From Escherichia coli (lineage in GTDB: Bacteria; Pseudomonadota; Gammaproteobacteria; Enterobacterales; Enterobacteriaceae): a stretch of DNA of 64,000 nucleotides. The translations under genes were made by a program, and so were the position numbers. The stretch lies in assembly GCA_902500005.1 (NCBI GenBank), contig GCA_902500005.1_3678.1. One strand, 5' to 3'. This document shows, piece by piece, positions 26,304-56,299 of the stretch (position 1 is its first letter; every line of letters begins with the position of its first letter). The notes beneath the pieces are model-generated. The model made no database searches. It was given only the letters and a program-made list of their open reading frames with translations, and had not been told where the DNA came from.

Positions 26304-26684
26304 TTATGACACTTTGACATAGCGCTCTGACAAAGCTGGGAAGCCAAAAGTAGTGCCTATACTACCATAGGCTATCCACCATTGGAGTTCATCGTGACAC
26401 CATTTTCCGATCAGGAAGGTGCTGGGATAGCGGGTCAGTATTTTGGCATAAGCTTTAGGATCTGCATCTTCTGGGATAATGATGCTTGGAATATCTTTGT
26501 TATGACCACAGCAGCAGTTTAGCGTTTTCAAACCTGCTGCCCACAAACTCATGATAGGCTTAGCCATACACTTATCAAGGCACACACGTTTTTTGCCGTC
26601 ACGAAGATTTTTAGGCACATCAACGATAACATTTGGATGCTTGGCACCTTTCACTTTCCAATTATAGGATTTACACTTGCACAT
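26304..26684 (-). CDS. Cys-rich hypothetical protein (126 aa)
   Basis: ATG with GGAG RBS; CKCK…CLDKC…CCCGH cysteine clusters. Confidence 0.4.
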   Translation of the reverse strand: MCKCKSYNWKVKGAKHPNVIVDVPKNLRDGKKRVCLDKCMAKPIMSLWAAGLKTLNCCCGHNKDIPSIIIPEDADPKAYAKILTRYPSTFLIGKWCHDELQWWIAYGSIGTTFGFPALSERYVKVS

Positions 26685-26910: not shown

Positions 26911-27381
26911 TTACTCCGGTTCAGGATCTGGGTAATCTTCAATAATAAAGGGCCATCCGTTCCGCTTAGCCTCAGACTTATACTCAATCTCCTTCATTGC
27001 AAACTCTAACTGATTCTTAGCCGGAATACATGCCGGAGAATCATCAATCCAGATATCTGGGTAGATATCAAACTGCGCCAGGTAGGCTGCCTTCTGAACA
27101 CCACCTGTGTAGAACACACCAACATCGAGCTCCTTGCGCCAATACTCAATGTCTACATTGTCTTGAGTAATGAATCGGAAAGTCACAAGGTAGACTGTCC
27201 ACCCCTCCTTCTTCAGATCCCTGATCAGGCTGGAGAAGATGAAAGGGCTCGCATTAAACGTTCCATCAAAGTCGATGGCAATGATGTGCGTGCCGTGGCG
27301 AGTCTCATATGGATTGCTCGTGGTAAGATTGCTGTAATTAAAAGGGACTTCTTCCCCGCAGTAGCTGTAGTCCATATTCAC
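26911..27381 (-). CDS. HAD-superfamily phosphatase (possible nucleotidase / 3'-phosphatase)
   Basis: HAD motif I HIIAIDFDGTF near N-terminus; GTG start overlapping upstream stop (alternative ATG at 27375). Confidence 0.55.
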   Translation of the reverse strand: MNMDYSYCGEEVPFNYSNLTTSNPYETRHGTHIIAIDFDGTFNASPFIFSSLIRDLKKEGWTVYLVTFRFITQDNVDIEYWRKELDVGVFYTGGVQKAAYLAQFDIYPDIWIDDSPACIPAKNQLEFAMKEIEYKSEAKRNGWPFIIEDYPDPEPE

Positions 27382-28279: not shown

Positions 28280-28525
28280 CTATAGCTCCACTAGCAAAGT
28301 GCTTTCAAAGTGCCGTTCATGCAAACCGTTGTAAGGGACCACTTCTACAACGCCATCACGGACATATGGGGCCATCATGGTGGTATAATCTCCAAACGGG
28401 TTGGTATTGTCACTAACCACAACCACCTTCTGCCCTTCCTTGGCAGAGTGCCAAATAGATCTGCACTTCATCAGGTGTTCGAGAGCTCCAGGTAAAATTT
28501 TGTTACGTTCTTTACGGGTCTTCAT
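28280..28525 (-). CDS. hypothetical protein (81 aa)
   Basis: ATG overlapping upstream stop (ATGA). Confidence 0.35.
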   Translation of the reverse strand: MKTRKERNKILPGALEHLMKCRSIWHSAKEGQKVVVVSDNTNPFGDYTTMMAPYVRDGVVEVVPYNGLHERHFESTLLVEL

Positions 28526-28971
28526 AACAGATATAGCTCCTTATGAAAGTGGTCTTTTAATTTCTCACTGAGAAACTTCTTGATACCTTCCTCTAAAGTG
28601 TTTTCGATGTAGTCCAGCTTAACTGCTTCGATGGACATATCATAGATTGCCAGCTCTAAGCTGTCAAGTCCCATCATAGCATGAACCATAAGATTTTCAT
28701 CTTCAGATACATTCAGGGGACTTCCTATAACATCTGGAGGCAGAATAGTTTCCCAATTATTCTGGGTGGTAGTTCTCCCGCCATCTACTTTACGGCGCAG
28801 TTCGAATGTGTTCTTAGTGTAGAACACTTCATAAGAAACGATACGACTGTCACTCTCATAATAAACGAAGTTCAGGTAGGAGCCTAGCCGCAGTCGGCAA
28901 ACTTCCACCCCAAACCATTGTTTCTTATAAGAATTCAGGCTAATGCTGTCGCATTCACGTTTGCTCAACAC
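28522..28971 (-). CDS. hypothetical protein (149 aa)
   Basis: GTG start 6 nt after AAGGAG. Confidence 0.4.
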   Translation of the reverse strand: MLSKRECDSISLNSYKKQWFGVEVCRLRLGSYLNFVYYESDSRIVSYEVFYTKNTFELRRKVDGGRTTTQNNWETILPPDVIGSPLNVSEDENLMVHAMMGLDSLELAIYDMSIEAVKLDYIENTLEEGIKKFLSEKLKDHFHKELYLL

Positions 28972-28987: not shown

Positions 28988-29221
28988 TTAATCTTCGTAA
29001 ATCAGGATTTCTGCTTTAGGTTTTCGTGCTTTCAGGTCCAGCTCTATCCAGTGCACCATAGCTGTTTCAAGAAAAACAGCTTGGATGCATCCGTCCTCAG
29101 CGTGCCCCACCAACATAACGAGATCTTCACCTTCGTCATCTGCATCACGAACATAAAGAATCTCTCCAGATTCGAAGTCTTTCACAACCTGATTGCTAGA
29201 TAATTTTCTAATTTTTGCCAT
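28988..29221 (-). CDS. small paralog family member 4 (77 aa)
   Basis: Fourth gene of tandem, translationally coupled array; shares G(E/T)(I/V)… and acidic patches with the other three. Confidence 0.45.
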   Translation of the reverse strand: MAKIRKLSSNQVVKDFESGEILYVRDADDEGEDLVMLVGHAEDGCIQAVFLETAMVHWIELDLKARKPKAEILIYED

Positions 29222-29222
29222 A

Positions 29223-29486
29223 TCAGAAACCCTCTAAAAAGCTCTTGTAGAAAACAATCTCAGTATCCACACCAGTCACAATCTTGTCGTTCCTGATTTC
29301 ATCGGTAAGATAGGTGTCAAAACGCAGAACCTGTGTGGTGTTGTCACACATCCACTCAGCTGTGACCATTGCGAAAATCTTAGCATCTTCATTATCTGGT
29401 GTGAATGTTACCACCTCACCGCACTTAAACTTTTCGATAGGCTGAGTGTTAGCTTTCGGTTCTGCGATAGTGATTTTTGTGGTCAT
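29223..29486 (-). CDS. small paralog family member 3 (87 aa)
   Basis: …KCGEVVTF… / …VTGVDTEIVF… align with members 1 and 2. Confidence 0.5.
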   Translation of the reverse strand: MTTKITIAEPKANTQPIEKFKCGEVVTFTPDNEDAKIFAMVTAEWMCDNTTQVLRFDTYLTDEIRNDKIVTGVDTEIVFYKSFLEGF

Positions 29487-29749
29487 TATTCTCCTCCTTC
29501 TTTTGAATAGCTTGTCTCTCCAAGGATGGTAATTTTGGTGTCAAGCTCTGTAACTTTCATGTTTGGCGGCAGATCGTACAACTCATTATTTTCTAAATCG
29601 AACCCCCACACACAATGTTCTCCTGTTTTGACAATCATAACTATGTTTTGAATGCCGTCTCCGTCGCAACTTACCACGGTCCCACACGGAAAACTGTCTG
29701 CACGCTTTTTGTTCTTCACCTTAGAATTGAATACAATGCTGGTAGCCAT
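29486..29749 (-). CDS. small paralog family member 2 (87 aa)
   Basis: MAT…K.KK…GTVV…IVK…FDL…LP…VTELD..ITILGE shared with member 1. Confidence 0.5.
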   Translation of the reverse strand: MATSIVFNSKVKNKKRADSFPCGTVVSCDGDGIQNIVMIVKTGEHCVWGFDLENNELYDLPPNMKVTELDTKITILGETSYSKEGGE

Positions 29750-30012
29750 TATTGTTCCTCCACCATAACTTCGCCAAGAATTTCTATGCAGGCATCCATT
29801 TCTGTAACAACCAAACTGTGAGGTAGTTCTACAAACACCTTTCTGAACAGATCAAATACCCCAACATATATGTTTGCAGGATGTGATTTTACAACAAGTG
29901 CTGTATTCACATCCCCAAGTTCATCAACAAACATCACCACAGTGCCTGGAGCTACTGAGGACAGATACTTCTTAGTTTTACGGTTTGATGCAAATTTTAA
30001 CTCTGTTGCCAT
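29749..30012 (-). CDS. small paralog family member 1 (87 aa)
   Basis: ATG after GAGGAGG; same length and motifs as member 2. Confidence 0.5.
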   Translation of the reverse strand: MATELKFASNRKTKKYLSSVAPGTVVMFVDELGDVNTALVVKSHPANIYVGVFDLFRKVFVELPHSLVVTEMDACIEILGEVMVEEQ

Positions 30013-30027
30013 AAATAACCTCCTCTC

Positions 30028-31488
30028 TTACTTAGCGTACTCGATTAATTCCACAGTTTTCCCAAAGCTCGGGATATAATTTTTATTATACCCCTCAGTG
30101 AGGACCCATAGAGTATCGTACTTTTTCCACTTGTTGTCAACAACCTTTTGTTCAAAGTTATGCTCAAAGTATAGGTCGGTCAGGACGATGACATCTTTTG
30201 CATTAGGTATGTTGGCATCCAGATACTCGAACACGCAAGCAGCTGTTGTGCCCCATGTTGAGTGGACCTCATAGTTGATCATCTCATCTATGTTACCGCG
30301 AGTGTATACTTTAACCTCTCCAACCTCAGTTGACCAACAGAACATTGTAACCTTAAACTCTTTATACAGATTGCACAATCCGGTGATTTCATTGAACATT
30401 TTCTTTAAAGTTCTTTGAGAGATCGAGCCAGAAACGTCTAAAGCTACAACAATATCTATGGTGTTTTCCGGATTACGACCAGGAACAATAACGTGCTGGT
30501 TCTTGTTTATAGCCCCAACTTTTCGCATTGTGCTGGTCAAAGACCCAGATCGGCGACCAGGTTTTCTGTAGGTCAGTTCAGCCTTTCGTTTAGACAACAT
30601 GCGTTGCTTAATGATGTCTATATAGTTGATTACAGGCTTACCCCTGTTCTTGACAAACTCACGCACCGCCTCAGGGCAACGACCTCCGGAAGCTTGCATT
30701 GCTGCCTCCAGCATATCACCAGAGTCCTGCATGGCCTGATCTTTATCAGATTGACTGATTACAGGTTGTGGCTGATCATACCCCATAGCCTTTCCAAGAT
30801 TATCACTGGTGCCACCGTTCCCACTCATGTGATCATCGGTTTGTCGCTTATCACTTTGAGAGTTCTCACCTTTACCGTTCTTACTTTTACCGTTATTCTG
30901 ATCTCTTTGCTTATCAAGAACTGCATAAACGTTCTCAGCAATCCATCCATGAAACTTCATGTCGCAGTAGCAGCTGGCTAAGAAGCCAAAAGGCTTACCT
31001 TTCATGAACGTAGTGCTTTTCCCCTTCGGGAAGAAAACACAAGGAGGTTTGCTAAAGTCAACCACAAGGCCTGTGTTGATAACGTGATCACAAGCAATAT
31101 TGAACAGTTCCGGCTCAAAGCTTTTACCACGGACTAGGTGATCACAGATAATATGCCCCACCTCATGTGACAGAAGGAAGGCCACCTCTTTCACAGATTT
31201 TGGGGAATAGAAAACTTCAGCCATCTCAAACTGCTCGTCAGTTAGAGAAGCCTTAAGAATAGCCTTGCGCTCATCAGCCAATCCCATAATGAACTCAGGA
31301 CTGTAATAGATGCGTTTATGGTCGGTTGCCATGGTGGAGCACCATGTGTGGTTTTCTACGAACTGCAACCCTGACAGTAGTGTGCCATAAAACGGCAGCT
31401 TTTCAAGGAGATACATACGTGCAGCCTGCAACATTCTCAGGGCATCATCTTTTTGTGAGGCAATGATTTCTGAACTTCTGCTATCCAT
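30028..31488 (-). CDS. metallopeptidase-domain + von Willebrand A domain protein (DUF2201-like)
   Basis: HExxH motif (SHEVGHIICDH) in N-terminal half; vWA MIDAS motif (VVALDVSGS) in C-terminal half; ATG at 31488 after GGAG (track start is TTG). Confidence 0.65.
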   Translation of the reverse strand: MDSRSSEIIASQKDDALRMLQAARMYLLEKLPFYGTLLSGLQFVENHTWCSTMATDHKRIYYSPEFIMGLADERKAILKASLTDEQFEMAEVFYSPKSVKEVAFLLSHEVGHIICDHLVRGKSFEPELFNIACDHVINTGLVVDFSKPPCVFFPKGKSTTFMKGKPFGFLASCYCDMKFHGWIAENVYAVLDKQRDQNNGKSKNGKGENSQSDKRQTDDHMSGNGGTSDNLGKAMGYDQPQPVISQSDKDQAMQDSGDMLEAAMQASGGRCPEAVREFVKNRGKPVINYIDIIKQRMLSKRKAELTYRKPGRRSGSLTSTMRKVGAINKNQHVIVPGRNPENTIDIVVALDVSGSISQRTLKKMFNEITGLCNLYKEFKVTMFCWSTEVGEVKVYTRGNIDEMINYEVHSTWGTTAACVFEYLDANIPNAKDVIVLTDLYFEHNFEQKVVDNKWKKYDTLWVLTEGYNKNYIPSFGKTVELIEYAK

Positions 31489-31521
31489 TAAAACTCCAGA
31501 AGGGGCCAATGGCCCCTGTCA

Positions 31522-32562
31522 TTATTTAACGTGTTTGAAAATACCTGCCAACTCGGTCATTGTCATGCGGGTGGTCTTCATAAGATCTGTCATAGCTTTC
31601 TCCATAATTGGAGATACTACCATAAAGTTTCCTTTAGTGAAACCTTTATTCCAGTCGGTCACCAACAGGGGTTTAAGTCCAGCTCCAAGACGTTCACCAG
31701 TTAAAGCACAGCATTTGCGAATATACGAACTCTTAAATTGGCTGAACGACAGATCAACTTTCATACCTACATCGTAGAACGTTTGGCAATAGAAAGTGTA
31801 AGCTTTGGCAATCTCAACATCATCAGGTAGTGCAGGAACCTCTTCTGTAAGCTCCTCTTCGACCCCTTGAGTCTCTTTTTCCTCTTCATGCACCTGTTGC
31901 GTCATTTCTTCAATCTCTTCTGTGATAGGCTCGTTTACAATGTCGGAAATGTGCTTCTTGGGTGCACGATAAGTAACTTTAGACATCGGTAGCATATCTT
32001 CCTCCTCTTCTTCGTCAAAGAGTGCTAGTTTATCCTCTTCCGTTCCATATTGCAAGATGAAATCTTCAAAAGTATAATCACCTTTCAATTTCTCCATACG
32101 CTCTTCGCTCAGGTGGAGCATCATCTGCTGGACAATTTTTCGATCAGTTTCGTCTTTAATCAAGACTGCAGTCTTTTTATCTACCAGACAGTCCTTTAGA
32201 GAGTTGCATCTCAATCCCACCACACAACAGTTATCAACCGCATAAGGACCTTCATCATCTATCCGCTCCAGAGATGGGTAGAAAGGATTCCCCAGCCCGT
32301 TTTCATCTGTGTGCATGTCAAAAGGTATAAGGGTATAGTCGCATACTCCATCTCCTAAAAGTTTTTTACCAAATAGGAGGTATTCTTCCCATGACAGGTC
32401 GAACTCTATATCTCGTTTCCGTGCGTTATTCTGTTTGCGTCTATATTTTTTGAGCAAGCGCTCTAACTCTTCTGGTGTATAATATTTTTCAAGATTCATG
32501 AGTCGTCTCTCGTGCTCTGTAAGTGAAGAAATCGTATCAATTGTCTCAACAGATGTCAACAT
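31522..32562 (-). CDS. HNH-like (His-Me finger) domain protein with acidic linker (347 aa)
   Basis: …PSLERIDDEGPYAVDNCCVVGLRCNSLK resembles HNH endonuclease signature (from memory); poly-Glu linker; internal Met preceded by GAGGAGG. Confidence 0.45.
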   Translation of the reverse strand: MLTSVETIDTISSLTEHERRLMNLEKYYTPEELERLLKKYRRKQNNARKRDIEFDLSWEEYLLFGKKLLGDGVCDYTLIPFDMHTDENGLGNPFYPSLERIDDEGPYAVDNCCVVGLRCNSLKDCLVDKKTAVLIKDETDRKIVQQMMLHLSEERMEKLKGDYTFEDFILQYGTEEDKLALFDEEEEEDMLPMSKVTYRAPKKHISDIVNEPITEEIEEMTQQVHEEEKETQGVEEELTEEVPALPDDVEIAKAYTFYCQTFYDVGMKVDLSFSQFKSSYIRKCCALTGERLGAGLKPLLVTDWNKGFTKGNFMVVSPIMEKAMTDLMKTTRMTMTELAGIFKHVK

Positions 32563-53166: not shown

Positions 53167-54437
53167 TGAGCGTTATTCAACAATTCGCTAACCCGATGAA
53201 TCCGCGTGAAACTGTTTTACTAGCTCACGGCATGATTAAACGTGTCAGCATCAAGCCTATCAAAGGTGCTGATCCTACAACAGGTATTAAAACCACTGTG
53301 TGGCAAGGTAAGAAAATTGAATCCAGCCACACCATCTCTTTACTGATTTCTGAACTGGATTCCTCTGATAACCTACTTCAAGGTGGTGAAGAAGTTTGGA
53401 TCAGTATGGGCGATAAGCTGCTTAAACCGGGTCATCAAGACTCTGTCTCTGTTAAAATTGATGACAAGTGGGAAACCGTAACGCCAGGATGGATCGTAAA
53501 TATCCCTTTGAAGGCAAACGAGCATAACGGTAAGACCTACTACAAAGGCTCACTGGCTAAGATGGTTAAGCTGGGTGCAGGAGAGGCTCCAGCAGCGACT
53601 CAGCAGCAAAAACAGCAACAAGGTGCACAATCACAAGGCCAGAAGCAGAAACCTCAGCAGAATGCCAATCAGGACGTTTTACGCATCTATGGTGATGTGA
53701 CTCAGATTGTTGGCAACGTGGTTACTGTTAATGACCACAAGATTGGTGAAGGTGCTATGGTTGTAACTGATGAGCAGCTTAAAGACCTGGTGGTAGGTGG
53801 TCGTGTTGCAGCCATTGTTGACAAAGACACCGGAAACATTATCAGTGGTTTCAAAGCCTATCCTCCTAAGGCAGAGAACGGTACTCAAGGCTCCGGTGGC
53901 AAGCGTAAATCCTCTTACGACCCTATCGGTGTGGAAACGGGGCATAGCATCAATGCGTTGCAGATCATCCTGGATCGCGGGTTTAAGGTAGACGACCCAC
54001 TGGGCGTGGCTAAAACACTGCACGTAGTCACCATTGAGCTTAAGAAAGAGTATGCTCAAGCCACCAACCGAACTGAAGATGAAGTAGGTGCCAGTGTCGG
54101 TAATGCGGTGTTGAACGCTTGTCGCCGTATTGACAAGAAAACGAAAGTTGATGATTTTGCAGTGGCAATTACTGCAGAAGCAAAAGATGTCTTGACTAAT
54201 CTAGCTGAGCCGTTGTACGATTGGATCAAGAACGGTGCTGAGTCCACTGACCATCAAGAACCTCAGGCTGCCAAACAGGAAGCAGCTCCACAGCAAAACA
54301 CTGTAGACGCTCCTCCTGTAAATGATGCGGAAGATGACCCAATGGATCAGAATCCAGCACAGTATGACTTCTGTGATGACATACCTTTCGCTCCGGTGGG
54401 TTTGCAATATGGCAAAAGTAGAATCCACGCATTGTAA
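53166..54437 (+). CDS. putative single-stranded DNA-binding protein (SSB-like acidic tail)
   Basis: Gln-rich low-complexity linker; …DFCDDIPF near C-terminus resembles the bacterial SSB tail DDDIPF but is followed by 15 extra residues. Confidence 0.4.
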
Positions 54438-55032
54438 GAGGTGCATCAAGTGCGGAGAGGTGAAAAACCTCTCCGAGTTCTACAAACACCCAAAGATGTC
54501 TGACGGTCATCTTAATAAGTGCAAAGAGTGTTGTAAGAAGGCCAGCAGGGAGGCTGACCAATTTTCCCACGACTCTTCAGAAAAAGGTGTGATCCGCGTG
54601 TTGTACAAGACTCAAAAGTGCAACAGTAAGAAGAGAGGTCACCCGCCTCCGACTTACACCAAAAAGGAGTTTAAGGAGTGGCTATACCTGAACGGTTACA
54701 AAGAGTTGTATGATCAGTGGGTAGCCAGCGGATACGACAAAAGGAAAAAGCCTTCTTGTGATAGGATAGATGATTTCAAAGGGTACTCTTTTGATAATAT
54801 CCGTTTAACGACCTGGGGAGAAAATAAAGACAAGCAGACGGAGGATATTCTGTTGCATAGAAGCACCAGCGGTAGACGGTGTAAAAATGTAAGGAGGCTG
54901 GACATGAATGGTAACGTTCTTAAAGAATGGGTATCCCACAATTCTTGTAGAAGAGAAACCGGAATATGTGTTGATTACTACATTCATGAAAAAATTCCAG
55001 CTCCCGATGGATACCTCTATGAATACTTTTAG
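54409..55032 (+). CDS. zinc-ribbon nuclease-like protein (possible HNH/EndoVII-type homing endonuclease)
   Basis: CKRCIKCG…H…DGH…CKECC zinc-binding cluster; C-terminal …[14 protein letters not shown]-like tail; ATG 54409 overlaps SSB-like gene 3' end. Confidence 0.35.
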
Positions 55033-55047
55033 CACCTAACTGACATA

Positions 55048-55076
55048 GCCCTGCCCGAAAGGGTGGGGCATTTTTG
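55048..55076 (+). terminator. rho-independent terminator, copy 2 of identical hairpin
   Basis: gccctgcccgaaagggtggggc + atttttg. Confidence 0.55.
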
Positions 55077-55094
55077 TATAAGGAGATCTGAAAA

Positions 55095-55511
55095 ATGACA
55101 TTAGAAGATATCATTGTTAAACCTGAGAACTATGACCAATACAACCTGTCAACTCAATCTGTAGACCTCGGATGCGCCACAGTCAGTGCATGGCTGGTTA
55201 ACGGAAAAGAGCTTGACGAGTGCCTGGAAGCACACATGTCGGTGAATAAATTTCTTGATGAAAATACCCACTGGCTAGAGGGTGCAGGAGTATATGCTTC
55301 ATGGTTGGAGAGTATGGGATTCGACTACCAATCTGAAGAGGGGTGGTGGAGCTATCTGGCTATCTGTCCAGAAACACTACAATGCTTCATGAAATACTCT
55401 GAAGATCTTGAGTACCGGGCGGTGGTTGATAGTGCTATTGCCCGTTATAGCCGTAAACCTTTTTCCCACGACATTAAAACTGTGGAAGAGTTTGTTGAAG
55501 TTTTCTGTTGA
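55095..55511 (+). CDS. hypothetical protein (138 aa)
   Basis: ATG after AAGGAG. Confidence 0.45.
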   Translation: MTLEDIIVKPENYDQYNLSTQSVDLGCATVSAWLVNGKELDECLEAHMSVNKFLDENTHWLEGAGVYASWLESMGFDYQSEEGWWSYLAICPETLQCFMKYSEDLEYRAVVDSAIARYSRKPFSHDIKTVEEFVEVFC

Positions 55512-55537
55512 CACAGGTTGAAAGGTGTGCAATTATA
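55508..55537 (+). promoter_or_regulatory. sigma70-like promoter
   Basis: TTGACA-17/18 nt-AATTAT/ATTATA. Confidence 0.4.
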
Positions 55538-55607
55538 ACTTCATATGACTGGAGGACGTGATGAACGAAGAAAACTGGGATGTATAACTAACAGGAGGCC
55601 ACTGCCC

Positions 55608-55805
55608 ATGATTTATCGAATCCGTGTAAGAGAAGATGCACCAGGCTGTTACTTTGACTGGCGTGGGTGGTGGTTTCTCCACCCAATGGATGGACTCACA
55701 GATAGAATGCTGGATGCTGCCCTTTATACAGATACCGACATAGAGTATAATCTCTATCTGAAGGACGGTATAGATAACGGCCTGTTTGAAGCAATTCCTG
55801 TGTAA
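55608..55805 (+). CDS. hypothetical protein (65 aa)
   Basis: ATG 9 nt after AGGAGG; the track's upstream ATG lies at the predicted transcript start. Confidence 0.35.
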   Translation: MIYRIRVREDAPGCYFDWRGWWFLHPMDGLTDRMLDAALYTDTDIEYNLYLKDGIDNGLFEAIPV

Positions 55806-55873
55806 GAGACTGTGATAGCTATGTTTTATGATCTTCCTGTAGCACCACCACCTGTTGAACCCGGAGAACTAAG

Positions 55874-56299
55874 ATGATCTATGAAATGCCAAAACTGATT
55901 CGTGACGATGCCCAAAACGCTCACACCATTATTATGGGCAAACGCATGGATATTATTTGTCATAAAGATTTCTGGGAAGGAAGTTACTTCACAGAGTATT
56001 TTGGTAAACTGGACAATGGTCTGCTGATCCAGTTCTACACCGATGCGGAAAACAACATTCACTGGGAGTTCGAAACTGAAGATATCCATAAACTTTTCAC
56101 CTTCCTCGGTATTAAGGTTGAGGCCAAGTTTGAAGAAGGTGAGTGCGACGATTGTGGATTCTATGAGGTAACAGATTTCTATCTCCCGAGTGGTGAGAAC
56201 CTTTACTATGAAAGCCACTTCGGTAACTCCAATATGCCACAGTGCTGGACTGAGTTTTTTGAAATTGCGGAAGAGGAGCTGGCATACCGTGATTATTGA
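55874..56299 (+). CDS. hypothetical protein (141 aa)
   Basis: ATG after GGAG. Confidence 0.45.
   Translation: MIYEMPKLIRDDAQNAHTIIMGKRMDIICHKDFWEGSYFTEYFGKLDNGLLIQFYTDAENNIHWEFETEDIHKLFTFLGIKVEAKFEEGECDDCGFYEVTDFYLPSGENLYYESHFGNSNMPQCWTEFFEIAEEELAYRDY

Follow-up and report, generated by a model that had tools for sequence, protein, structure and literature searches.

We analysed a 64,000-nucleotide stretch of Escherichia coli DNA (NCBI GenBank assembly GCA_902500005.1, contig GCA_902500005.1_3678.1), called here the window, and focused on four consecutive small genes, p1 to p4, that lie on its minus strand between positions 28988 and 30012. The 2 kb around this array are 99.6% identical to Vequintavirus phages (rV5-like myoviruses) of the 'murica' type, such as HdK5, CarlMeissner/Bas48 and Murica. 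We showed that p1 to p4 are anciently diverged copies of one small protein family, and that profile comparison together with the predicted fold links two PHROG families, phrog_12861 (p3) and phrog_12046 (p4), to a third one, phrog_10698 (p1 and p2). It is an ordinary accessory phage gene family, and all that sets it apart is that some members evolve fast and others are almost frozen.

The four genes of the array are paralogs

An earlier note on this DNA, made from the sequence alone, had listed four consecutive minus-strand open reading frames (ORFs) of 77 to 87 amino acids, and all four were found again: p1 (29749-30012, 87 amino acids, fast-evolving, present only in the four-gene or 'murica-type' configuration), p2 (29486-29749, 87 amino acids, the second fast-evolving member), p3 (29223-29486, 87 amino acids, a distant paralog under very strong purifying selection) and p4 (28988-29221, 77 amino acids, the most distant paralog, and conserved). 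These are real genes, with pairwise ratios of non-synonymous to synonymous substitution rates (dN/dS, or omega) of 0.01-0.24 against their homologues. Their equivalents in CarlMeissner, bas48_0051 to bas48_0054, are annotated as hypothetical proteins.

Along the whole of their 87 amino acids, p1 and p2 share 36.8% identity (E 2.7e-12), and the hidden Markov model (HMM) of phrog_10698 recognises both over their full length (E 7.6e-43 and 4.8e-41, respectively). By this criterion the family would comprise p1 and p2 only, p3 reaching just E 0.078 and p4 giving no match; each of the window proteins is nonetheless a full-length member of its own PHROG family (E 1e-41 to 1e-62 across phrog_10698, phrog_12861 and phrog_12046). 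By eye, p3 and p4 have just one glycine and a hydrophobic pattern in common with p1 and p2. Profile-profile comparison with hhalign was more sensitive. Against profiles built from p1, p2 and two related types described below (the gp014 type and the s83 type), p3 scored a probability of 75% (P 2.5e-5), then 88% and then 95% (P 5e-8) as the profiles were enriched. The matches were always full-length and colinear, and the enriched profiles gave 93-95% (P 4e-7 to 5e-8). For p4, the early, thin profiles gave no significant match (P 0.06-0.1), and those including the single-copy s83 type reached 77% (P 2e-5) and 88% (P 3.4e-6) over 67 colinear columns. Moreover, when an HMM built from p1, p2 and gp014-type sequences, with p3 and p4 left out, was used to rank all 448 ORFs of at least 40 amino acids in the window, the next hits after p1 and p2 were p3 (E 1e-5) and p4 (E 0.065).

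Thus the shared scaffold that the earlier note had read in the four proteins is borne out by the p1/p2 identity, by hhalign for p3 and p4 and by the HMM ranking, and the alignment that it proposed as a check does find significant similarity at the profile level. Pairwise alignment alone is not convincing for p4: its Smith-Waterman shuffling z-scores of about 3-4 are barely above those of unrelated control proteins, so that its membership rests on profile comparison, predicted fold and position. In a distance tree, the sequences fall into p1, p2, gp014 and s83 groups, and p3 and p4 form long branches.

The earlier note had also described overlapping stop and start codons and translational coupling throughout the array. 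The overlap exists at the p1/p2 and p2/p3 junctions, where stop and start codons share one base (TAATG), but p3 and p4 are separated by a one-base spacer (TGA, one base, ATG). Each of the four genes is preceded by its own Shine-Dalgarno-like GGAGG or GAGGG, and the spacing between the neighbouring genes of the operon is equally tight. Since tight packing is a property of the whole operon, it is not special to the paralogs, and what remains of the coupling claim is the overlap at two of three junctions.

Copy number and cassette replacement in rV5-like phages

In a tblastn search of the phage collection, the family was found in 118 Vequintavirus records only. All 118 keep p3 (at least 90% identity) and p4 (at least 80%). 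The slot upstream of p3 holds either p1 and p2, which gives four copies (44/118 cultured phages), or a single 85-amino-acid gene of the type of rV5 gp014, which gives three (74/118). Sixteen MG0656xx records of near-identical rV5-like coliphage genomes (e.g. MG065662 and MG065635) carry the name 'Campylobacter phage' with Campylobacter jejuni as host; they are probably mislabelled or derived from contaminated lysates.

In the upstream slot one cassette has replaced another, through recombination at gene ends that are conserved. A blastn comparison of the window with rV5 aligns both flanks (96.1% and 97.5% identity) and leaves the middle unaligned: positions 29498-29997 have no nucleotide match to rV5, which has the single gp014 there. 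The break points fall within the first five or so codons of p1 and the last four or so codons of p2. The gp014 protein is 39.5% identical to p1 and 40.7% to p2.

The distribution of the family is very narrow. An exhaustive HMM search of 1.84 billion cluster-representative proteins returned seven matches, five of which are the family itself (p1, p2, gp014 and p3 types). The other two were set aside: one (P0011) is a low-complexity repeat protein judged spurious, and the other (P0013), a secreted protein with four SH3/KOW-like repeats, is too weak a match to use. The latter, of 277 amino acids with four 'FKVGETVTY...' repeats, matches the p1/p2/p3 profile at E 1.5e-5 and also, in Pfam, the models for KOW and for the C-terminal SH3 domain of RimP, an independent hint at an SH3/KOW-like character of the family profile. 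A p3-anchored scan recovered only three metagenome contigs, all in the two known configurations. The same four genes are present in a more distant lineage (contigs L004-L006), the metallopeptidase gene that precedes the array being 82% identical there at the protein level.

Four IMG/VR phages, whose metallopeptidases are 61-62% identical, carry one member, of the s83 type (HMM E 1e-9 to 7e-11), which is placed between the metallopeptidase gene and the gene for a 149-amino-acid protein that follows the array in the window; they have neither p3 nor p4. Finally, no HMM-detectable member was found at the equivalent loci of Seunavirus, Mydovirus (covered by the HMM scan only), Certrevirus and the unclassified Vequintavirinae phage UPEC06: in Seunavirus the metallopeptidase gene is directly followed by the homologue of the 149-amino-acid gene, and in Certrevirus and UPEC06 by an unrelated small gene. 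Tandem duplication as the mode of growth is supported by this series of 0, 1, 3 and 4 copies, and the repeated duplication and divergence of one small domain that the earlier note had proposed is upheld. In the literature we found no description of the single-copy s83 type or of the copy series across lineages.

All array copies lie directly downstream of the metallopeptidase gene. In two of the four IMG/VR relatives, an extra gp014-like copy is dispersed elsewhere, in a second variable region that corresponds to about 54.1-56.3 kb of the window, and adjoins a homologue of the window gene at 26464-26684. In the window this second region (about 54135-56290, plus strand) lies between a gene for an SSB-like protein of 423 amino acids and a macro-domain gene, and holds a gene for an HNH/AP2-like endonuclease of 236 amino acids and three small genes.

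The upstream slot evolves fast and p3 and p4 are nearly invariant

Between the window and the L006 lineage, amino acid identity is 98% for p3 and 95% for p4, as against 82% for the metallopeptidase, 56% for p1, 64% for p2, 61% for the 149-amino-acid protein, and 67%, 55% and 37% for the 81-, 188- and 91-amino-acid products of neighbouring genes. No other gene of the operon is as well conserved as p3 and p4. Substitution rates, estimated pairwise by the Nei-Gojobori method from few sequences and with some comparisons saturated, show the same contrast. The omega of p3 is about 0.01-0.02 (0.009-0.02), with 20 synonymous changes against one non-synonymous change relative to rV5, and 44 against seven relative to phage Aya; that of p4 is 0.03-0.13. 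For p1 and p2 omega is 0.15-0.24 (about 0.15 for p2), versus 0-0.08 for neighbouring genes in comparisons of close relatives. In the single-copy lineage, s83 accumulates non-synonymous changes 10-15 times faster than its flanking genes at similar dS (omega 0.31-0.53), and roughly 60 clusters of it exist at the 90% identity level in the protein database.

The upstream slot has therefore undergone accelerated evolution (omega 0.15-0.5), which stops short of positive selection: no gene and no 21-codon segment exceeds an omega of 1, the maximum of 0.94 being that of an s83 segment with very few changes. The diversifying selection that the earlier note had suggested for the four genes is thus not shown, and two of them, p3 and p4, go the opposite way, being more conserved than all their neighbours (37-82% identity). 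What can be kept of it is variability of the upstream slot (p1/p2, gp014, s83), which arises by cassette replacement and a raised rate, but does not extend to p3 and p4.

At the nucleotide level p3 behaves differently. Among close relatives it is the most divergent stretch of the operon (80-92% nucleotide identity versus 95-100% for its neighbours) with a protein that stays 93-99% identical. Against L006 the pattern is reversed, p3 having 90% nucleotide identity versus 59-66% for the downstream neighbours and 74% for the metallopeptidase gene. The synonymous divergence of p3 and p4 from L006 is about 0.65, below that of their saturated neighbours. This lower divergence, together with the nucleotide divergence of p3 among close relatives, points to recombinational mosaicism around a constant protein. 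The opposite patterns of p3 at the two distances suggest that recombination has shuffled old alleles whose protein is tightly constrained.

Predicted fold, composition and searches for function

AlphaFold2 modelled p1, from an alignment of four sequences that included p3, as an all-beta barrel (predicted local distance difference test score, pLDDT, 78; predicted template modelling score, pTM, 0.67) with strands at residues 2-8, 14-16, 25-29, 35-42, 49-54, 59-64 and 68-79. The model of p4, built from its own close relatives only, has the same strand order (pLDDT 72, pTM 0.58). Both alignments are shallow (four and eight sequences). The models display the five or six strongly bent antiparallel strands and the closed barrel of SH3-like small beta-barrels, so that p1 and p4 are predicted to adopt an SH3/Tudor/KOW-like fold. 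The expectation of the earlier note that structure prediction would reveal a common fold is in line with these two models, of p1 and p4 only. This fold is generic, hundreds of unrelated SH3-like barrels scoring equally well, and therefore yields no functional lead; a fold search of BFVD returned only uncharacterised small phage proteins.

Sequence searches were not more informative. Pfam gave no match for p1 to p4 at E up to 1 and none for the s83 and gp014 types at E up to 10, and no significant match to a known function came from sequence-profile searches of Pfam, NCBIfam and the PDB, whose top match was the KOW domain of Spt5 at a weak E of 0.46, with eS4 also among the weak best. As all three PHROG families are labelled 'unknown function', the earlier note was right that no function is recognisable from sequence. 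A 'DUF1883' source label carried by one s83-type protein was not reproduced with Pfam at E up to 10, and was dropped.

Three subclasses of small barrels, KOW, Tudor and Sm/LSm/Hfq, do not fit the family. A G-x-V-V...G pattern can be seen by eye only, and neither Pfam PF00467 nor related models identify a KOW domain. The aromatic cage of four or five residues typical of Tudor domains is absent from the 23-sequence alignment, in which one phenylalanine is the only (nearly) conserved aromatic residue. An Sm/LSm/Hfq assignment is not supported either, the models opening with a strand, the isoelectric points being 4.2-5.7 and Pfam giving no LSM match. In the same alignment M, T, G, T, V, D, L, E, I and G occupy invariant columns. 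We read the family-conserved glycine, threonine, valine, aspartate, leucine, glutamate, isoleucine and glycine columns as core or turn positions; to judge from the alignment, they look structural rather than catalytic, and no catalytic signature was recognised. All members are acidic (net charge -1 to -9), a composition that argues for protein over nucleic-acid partners.

The array lies in a predicted early operon

The operon starts with an Srd-like 'anti-sigma' gene, followed by the metallopeptidase gene, p1 to p4, the 149-amino-acid gene and further small genes, up to a site near 27350 that resembles a terminator. A strong sigma70-type promoter-like site (32531-32559, minus strand; TTGACA, 17 nt, TACGAT, with an extended -10 TG) precedes the Srd-like gene and is the counterpart of promoter P11 of rV5, which heads the transcription unit of genes 11-26. 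In rV5, genes 11-26 were described as one transcription unit (Kropinski et al. 2013, PMC3606486). The array is thus predicted to belong to an early operon driven by the host RNA polymerase with sigma70. The family products are not named among the detected virion proteins in the text of that paper, and a gene-name search of its five supplementary files retrieved none of them (PMC3606486). Our literature searches found nothing on the locus tags, on rV5 transcriptomics or on DUF2201 in phages.

Upstream of p1, the metallopeptidase gene (30028-31509, minus strand) encodes a DUF2201_N metallopeptidase domain (PF13203, E 4e-28) and a DUF2201 VWA-like domain (PF09967, E 6e-11). Homologues of it are carried by 621 phage records, jumbo and N4-like phages among them, and are variously called 'HNH endonuclease', 'anti-sigma factor', 'VWA-like' or 'metallopeptidase'. 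In the rV5 reference (NC_011041, 1757-3218) the gene is split into gp012 and gp013, probably by a frameshift. By homology with bas48_0063 of CarlMeissner, we presume that a MoxR ATPase gene lies at about 35.1-36.3 kb on the plus strand of the window; the module formed by the VWA-metallopeptidase and the MoxR ATPase looks more interesting than the small paralogs themselves.

Downstream of p4, the 149-amino-acid gene (28522-28971, minus strand) is conserved across the Vequintavirinae and is labelled 'tail protein' via phrog_6790 despite its position in an early operon. It contains the best match of the region to the sigma70 consensus (28639-28667, minus strand; TTGACA, 17 nt, TATGAT; 11 of 12 positions), which may be an internal promoter for the downstream genes.

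The genes are dispensable in Bas54 on K-12

Gene essentiality was mapped by HIDEN-SEQ transposon sequencing in Bas54 (phage MaxBurger), a three-gene Vequintavirus, on E. coli K-12 and on CFE311, a clinical isolate from the urinary tract (bioRxiv 10.1101/2025.11.20.689424). We assigned bas54_0054 to the gp014 type (98% identical to rV5 gp014), bas54_0053 to p3 (one substitution) and bas54_0052 to p4 (identical). All the operon genes in the published table, bas54_0045 to bas54_0056, are non-essential on K-12 (bioRxiv 10.1101/2025.11.20.689424). Insertions hit 17/17 TA sites of the gp014-type gene, 13/15 of the p3 gene and 12/12 of the p4 gene, and the log2 fold changes (log2FC) in CFE311 versus K-12 are +0.46 (q 1), +0.33 (q 1) and -1.32 (q 0.68), respectively. 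From this non-essentiality we conclude that the family is accessory.

Other genes of the phage respond to the clinical strain. The metallopeptidase gene (bas54_0055; 81/86 TA sites hit) has a log2FC of -2.20 (q 0.009) and the MoxR ATPase gene (bas54_0063; 60/64 TA sites hit) one of -7.23 (q 0), both being non-essential on K-12. The orthologue of the 149-amino-acid gene (bas54_0051), also non-essential on K-12, is mildly depleted in CFE311 (log2FC -2.28, p 0.028, q 0.195), and an anti-defence function of the MoxR ATPase gene, directed at the predicted defence system DS-28, was validated in that study (bioRxiv 10.1101/2025.11.20.689424). These conditional-fitness data come from one phage and one clinical strain. 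In the supplementary material, the sheet 'K-12 versus CFE303' of Extended Data Table 8 (S6/S7) gives the command line and input files of CFE311 (bioRxiv 10.1101/2025.11.20.689424), so that the table as deposited may lack the comparison with CFE303.

Proposed role and alternative explanations

The descriptive side of the result is firm: the family is a lineage-specific set of small (77-88 amino acids), acidic, cytoplasmic proteins, each made of a single predicted SH3-like (Tudor/KOW-like) beta-barrel. It grew by tandem duplication from one gene located between the VWA-metallopeptidase gene and the 149-amino-acid gene, the number of copies going from 0 to 1 and then to 3 or 4. Small, acidic, devoid of a catalytic signature, expressed early as predicted and dispensable in the laboratory, these proteins are most simply explained as accessory factors that bind other proteins. 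They would be non-enzymatic binding modules, made early in infection and acting on host proteins, an explanation that we hold tentatively, as a real possibility that falls just short of being probable. The contrast in rates suggests that the target of the upstream slot varies and that the partner of p3 and p4 is conserved. The fast-evolving upstream members (p1 and p2, gp014, s83), swapped between phages as a cassette, may thus address host targets that vary, for instance strain-specific factors for defence or surface exclusion, and p3 and p4, always together and nearly invariant, probably act jointly on a conserved partner. Protein binding, the identity of the partners and a role in counter-defence are all points that we infer.

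Several observations weigh against this proposal. The structure models were built on shallow alignments, and the fold that they predict is shared with hundreds of equally scoring barrels. Since omega never exceeds 1, an arms race is not demonstrated. Bas54 grown on CFE311 tolerates insertions in the gp014-type and p3 genes, and the change observed for p4 is not significant. Moreover, it is strange that a gene which can be lost at no cost in the laboratory should vary as little as p3. The host-interaction or anti-defence role that the earlier note had put forward is kept in part: an accessory role in host interaction is plausible, but Bas54 shows no requirement for the three orthologues on K-12 or CFE311. 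Coming from a single clinical strain, the Bas54 result neither proves nor excludes an anti-defence role. A more specific version of our proposal is a two-tier counter-defence kit based on a Tudor/KOW-like barrel, in which p3 and p4 would form a conserved heterodimeric core that docks on an invariant host machine, and the swapped barrels (p1, p2, gp014, s83) would be decoys or inhibitors of polymorphic E. coli defence systems, re-armed via recombination at the conserved gene ends; we regard this version as unlikely.

Among the alternatives, the small barrels could serve the MoxR-ATPase/VWA-metallopeptidase machine as adaptors, regulators or substrates; the machine would itself be a counter-defence device, and the array would diversify its range of targets. 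The position of the array copies directly downstream of the metallopeptidase gene, in the same operon, is consistent with this idea, as are the conditional requirement for both machine components in CFE311, the action of the MoxR ATPase against DS-28 and the mild depletion there of p4 and the 149-amino-acid gene (log2FC -1.3 and -2.3, neither significant after correction). However, insertions in the gp014-type and p3 genes are not depleted in CFE311, so these two are not needed there for the function of the MoxR ATPase and the metallopeptidase. Furthermore, homologues of the metallopeptidase in Seunavirus, Certrevirus, jumbo and N4-like phages do without the family, and two relatives carry a family copy in an unrelated variable region. 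Taken together, we think it doubtful that the barrels belong to this machine.

The C-terminal Tudor domain of UvrD/PcrA binds RNA polymerase, and the family might comprise Tudor-like mimics that dock on the host enzyme in the manner of this domain or of the Mfd/CarD interaction domains, redirecting transcription together with the Srd-like anti-sigma protein. The array and the Srd-like gene do share an early operon, and the scant change in p3 and p4 would be explained if their host target were highly conserved. Nevertheless, the models match RNA-polymerase-binding Tudor domains no better than dozens of unrelated Tudor, KOW and L2 domains, there is no sequence similarity to those Tudor or interaction domains, and the genes are dispensable on K-12, which makes this explanation improbable.

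We consider it equally hard to believe that the proteins bind RNA or DNA as KOW-, Sm- or Hfq-like factors, possibly in a hetero-oligomeric ring, to control translation or the stability of RNA. The best, if weak, PDB sequence matches, the KOW domain of Spt5 and eS4, would go in this direction, and four tightly co-expressed paralogs would fit a heteromer; against it stand the negative charge of every member, the lack of a Pfam KOW or LSM match and models that open with a beta-strand and not with the N-terminal helix of Sm proteins. Finally, that these are chance ORFs, decaying duplicates or virion components without a role inside the cell is scarcely credible, for although the genes are non-essential in the laboratory and a neighbour is labelled 'tail protein' in some records, the low omega with its many synonymous changes effectively refutes this reading, p3 and p4 are retained in every one of the 118 genomes, and the genes sit in an early operon and are neither named among the virion proteins in the text of the rV5 paper nor retrieved by the gene-name search of its supplementary files.

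If the protein-binding role that we favour is true, the family is a compact natural experiment, in which two copies of one 9-kDa scaffold are kept near-invariant and the other copies have diversified or been swapped. The rV5-like phages are used for therapy and for O157 typing, and the genes, being dispensable, can be deleted; a transposon library for the group already exists. As it stands, the result joins three 'unknown' PHROG families in one superfamily with a fold assignment, and leaves the understanding of phage biology unchanged.

Comparison with known systems

PHROGs already groups p1 with p2, and keeps p3 and p4 as separate families with no link to phrog_10698, to which they are joined here. 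With known SH3-like barrels, namely the Tudor domains of SMN and TDRD3, the KOW domains of Spt5/NusG, the C-terminal domain of ribosomal protein L2 and domain I of EF-P, the family has no significant sequence similarity. Its members differ from these in being acidic and not basic, in having no conserved aromatic cage, in carrying an extra N-terminal strand and in standing alone as single domains. The C-terminal Tudor domain of UvrD/PcrA is not related in sequence either, and matches no better than eukaryotic Tudor domains.

A further parallel is with the accessory-gene hot spots of lytic phages, described in a screen that was made without rV5-like phages (bioRxiv 10.1101/2023.04.06.535777). 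Such hot spots are variable regions flanked by conserved genes, and their small, fast-evolving genes serve anti-defence or host takeover. In contrast to these hot spots, half of the array (p3 and p4) is invariable, and no defence system has been matched to any member. The two are otherwise alike in consisting of small genes between conserved anchors, in the polymorphism of presence and absence and of cassettes among near-identical genomes, in early expression, which is predicted here, and in being dispensable in the laboratory.

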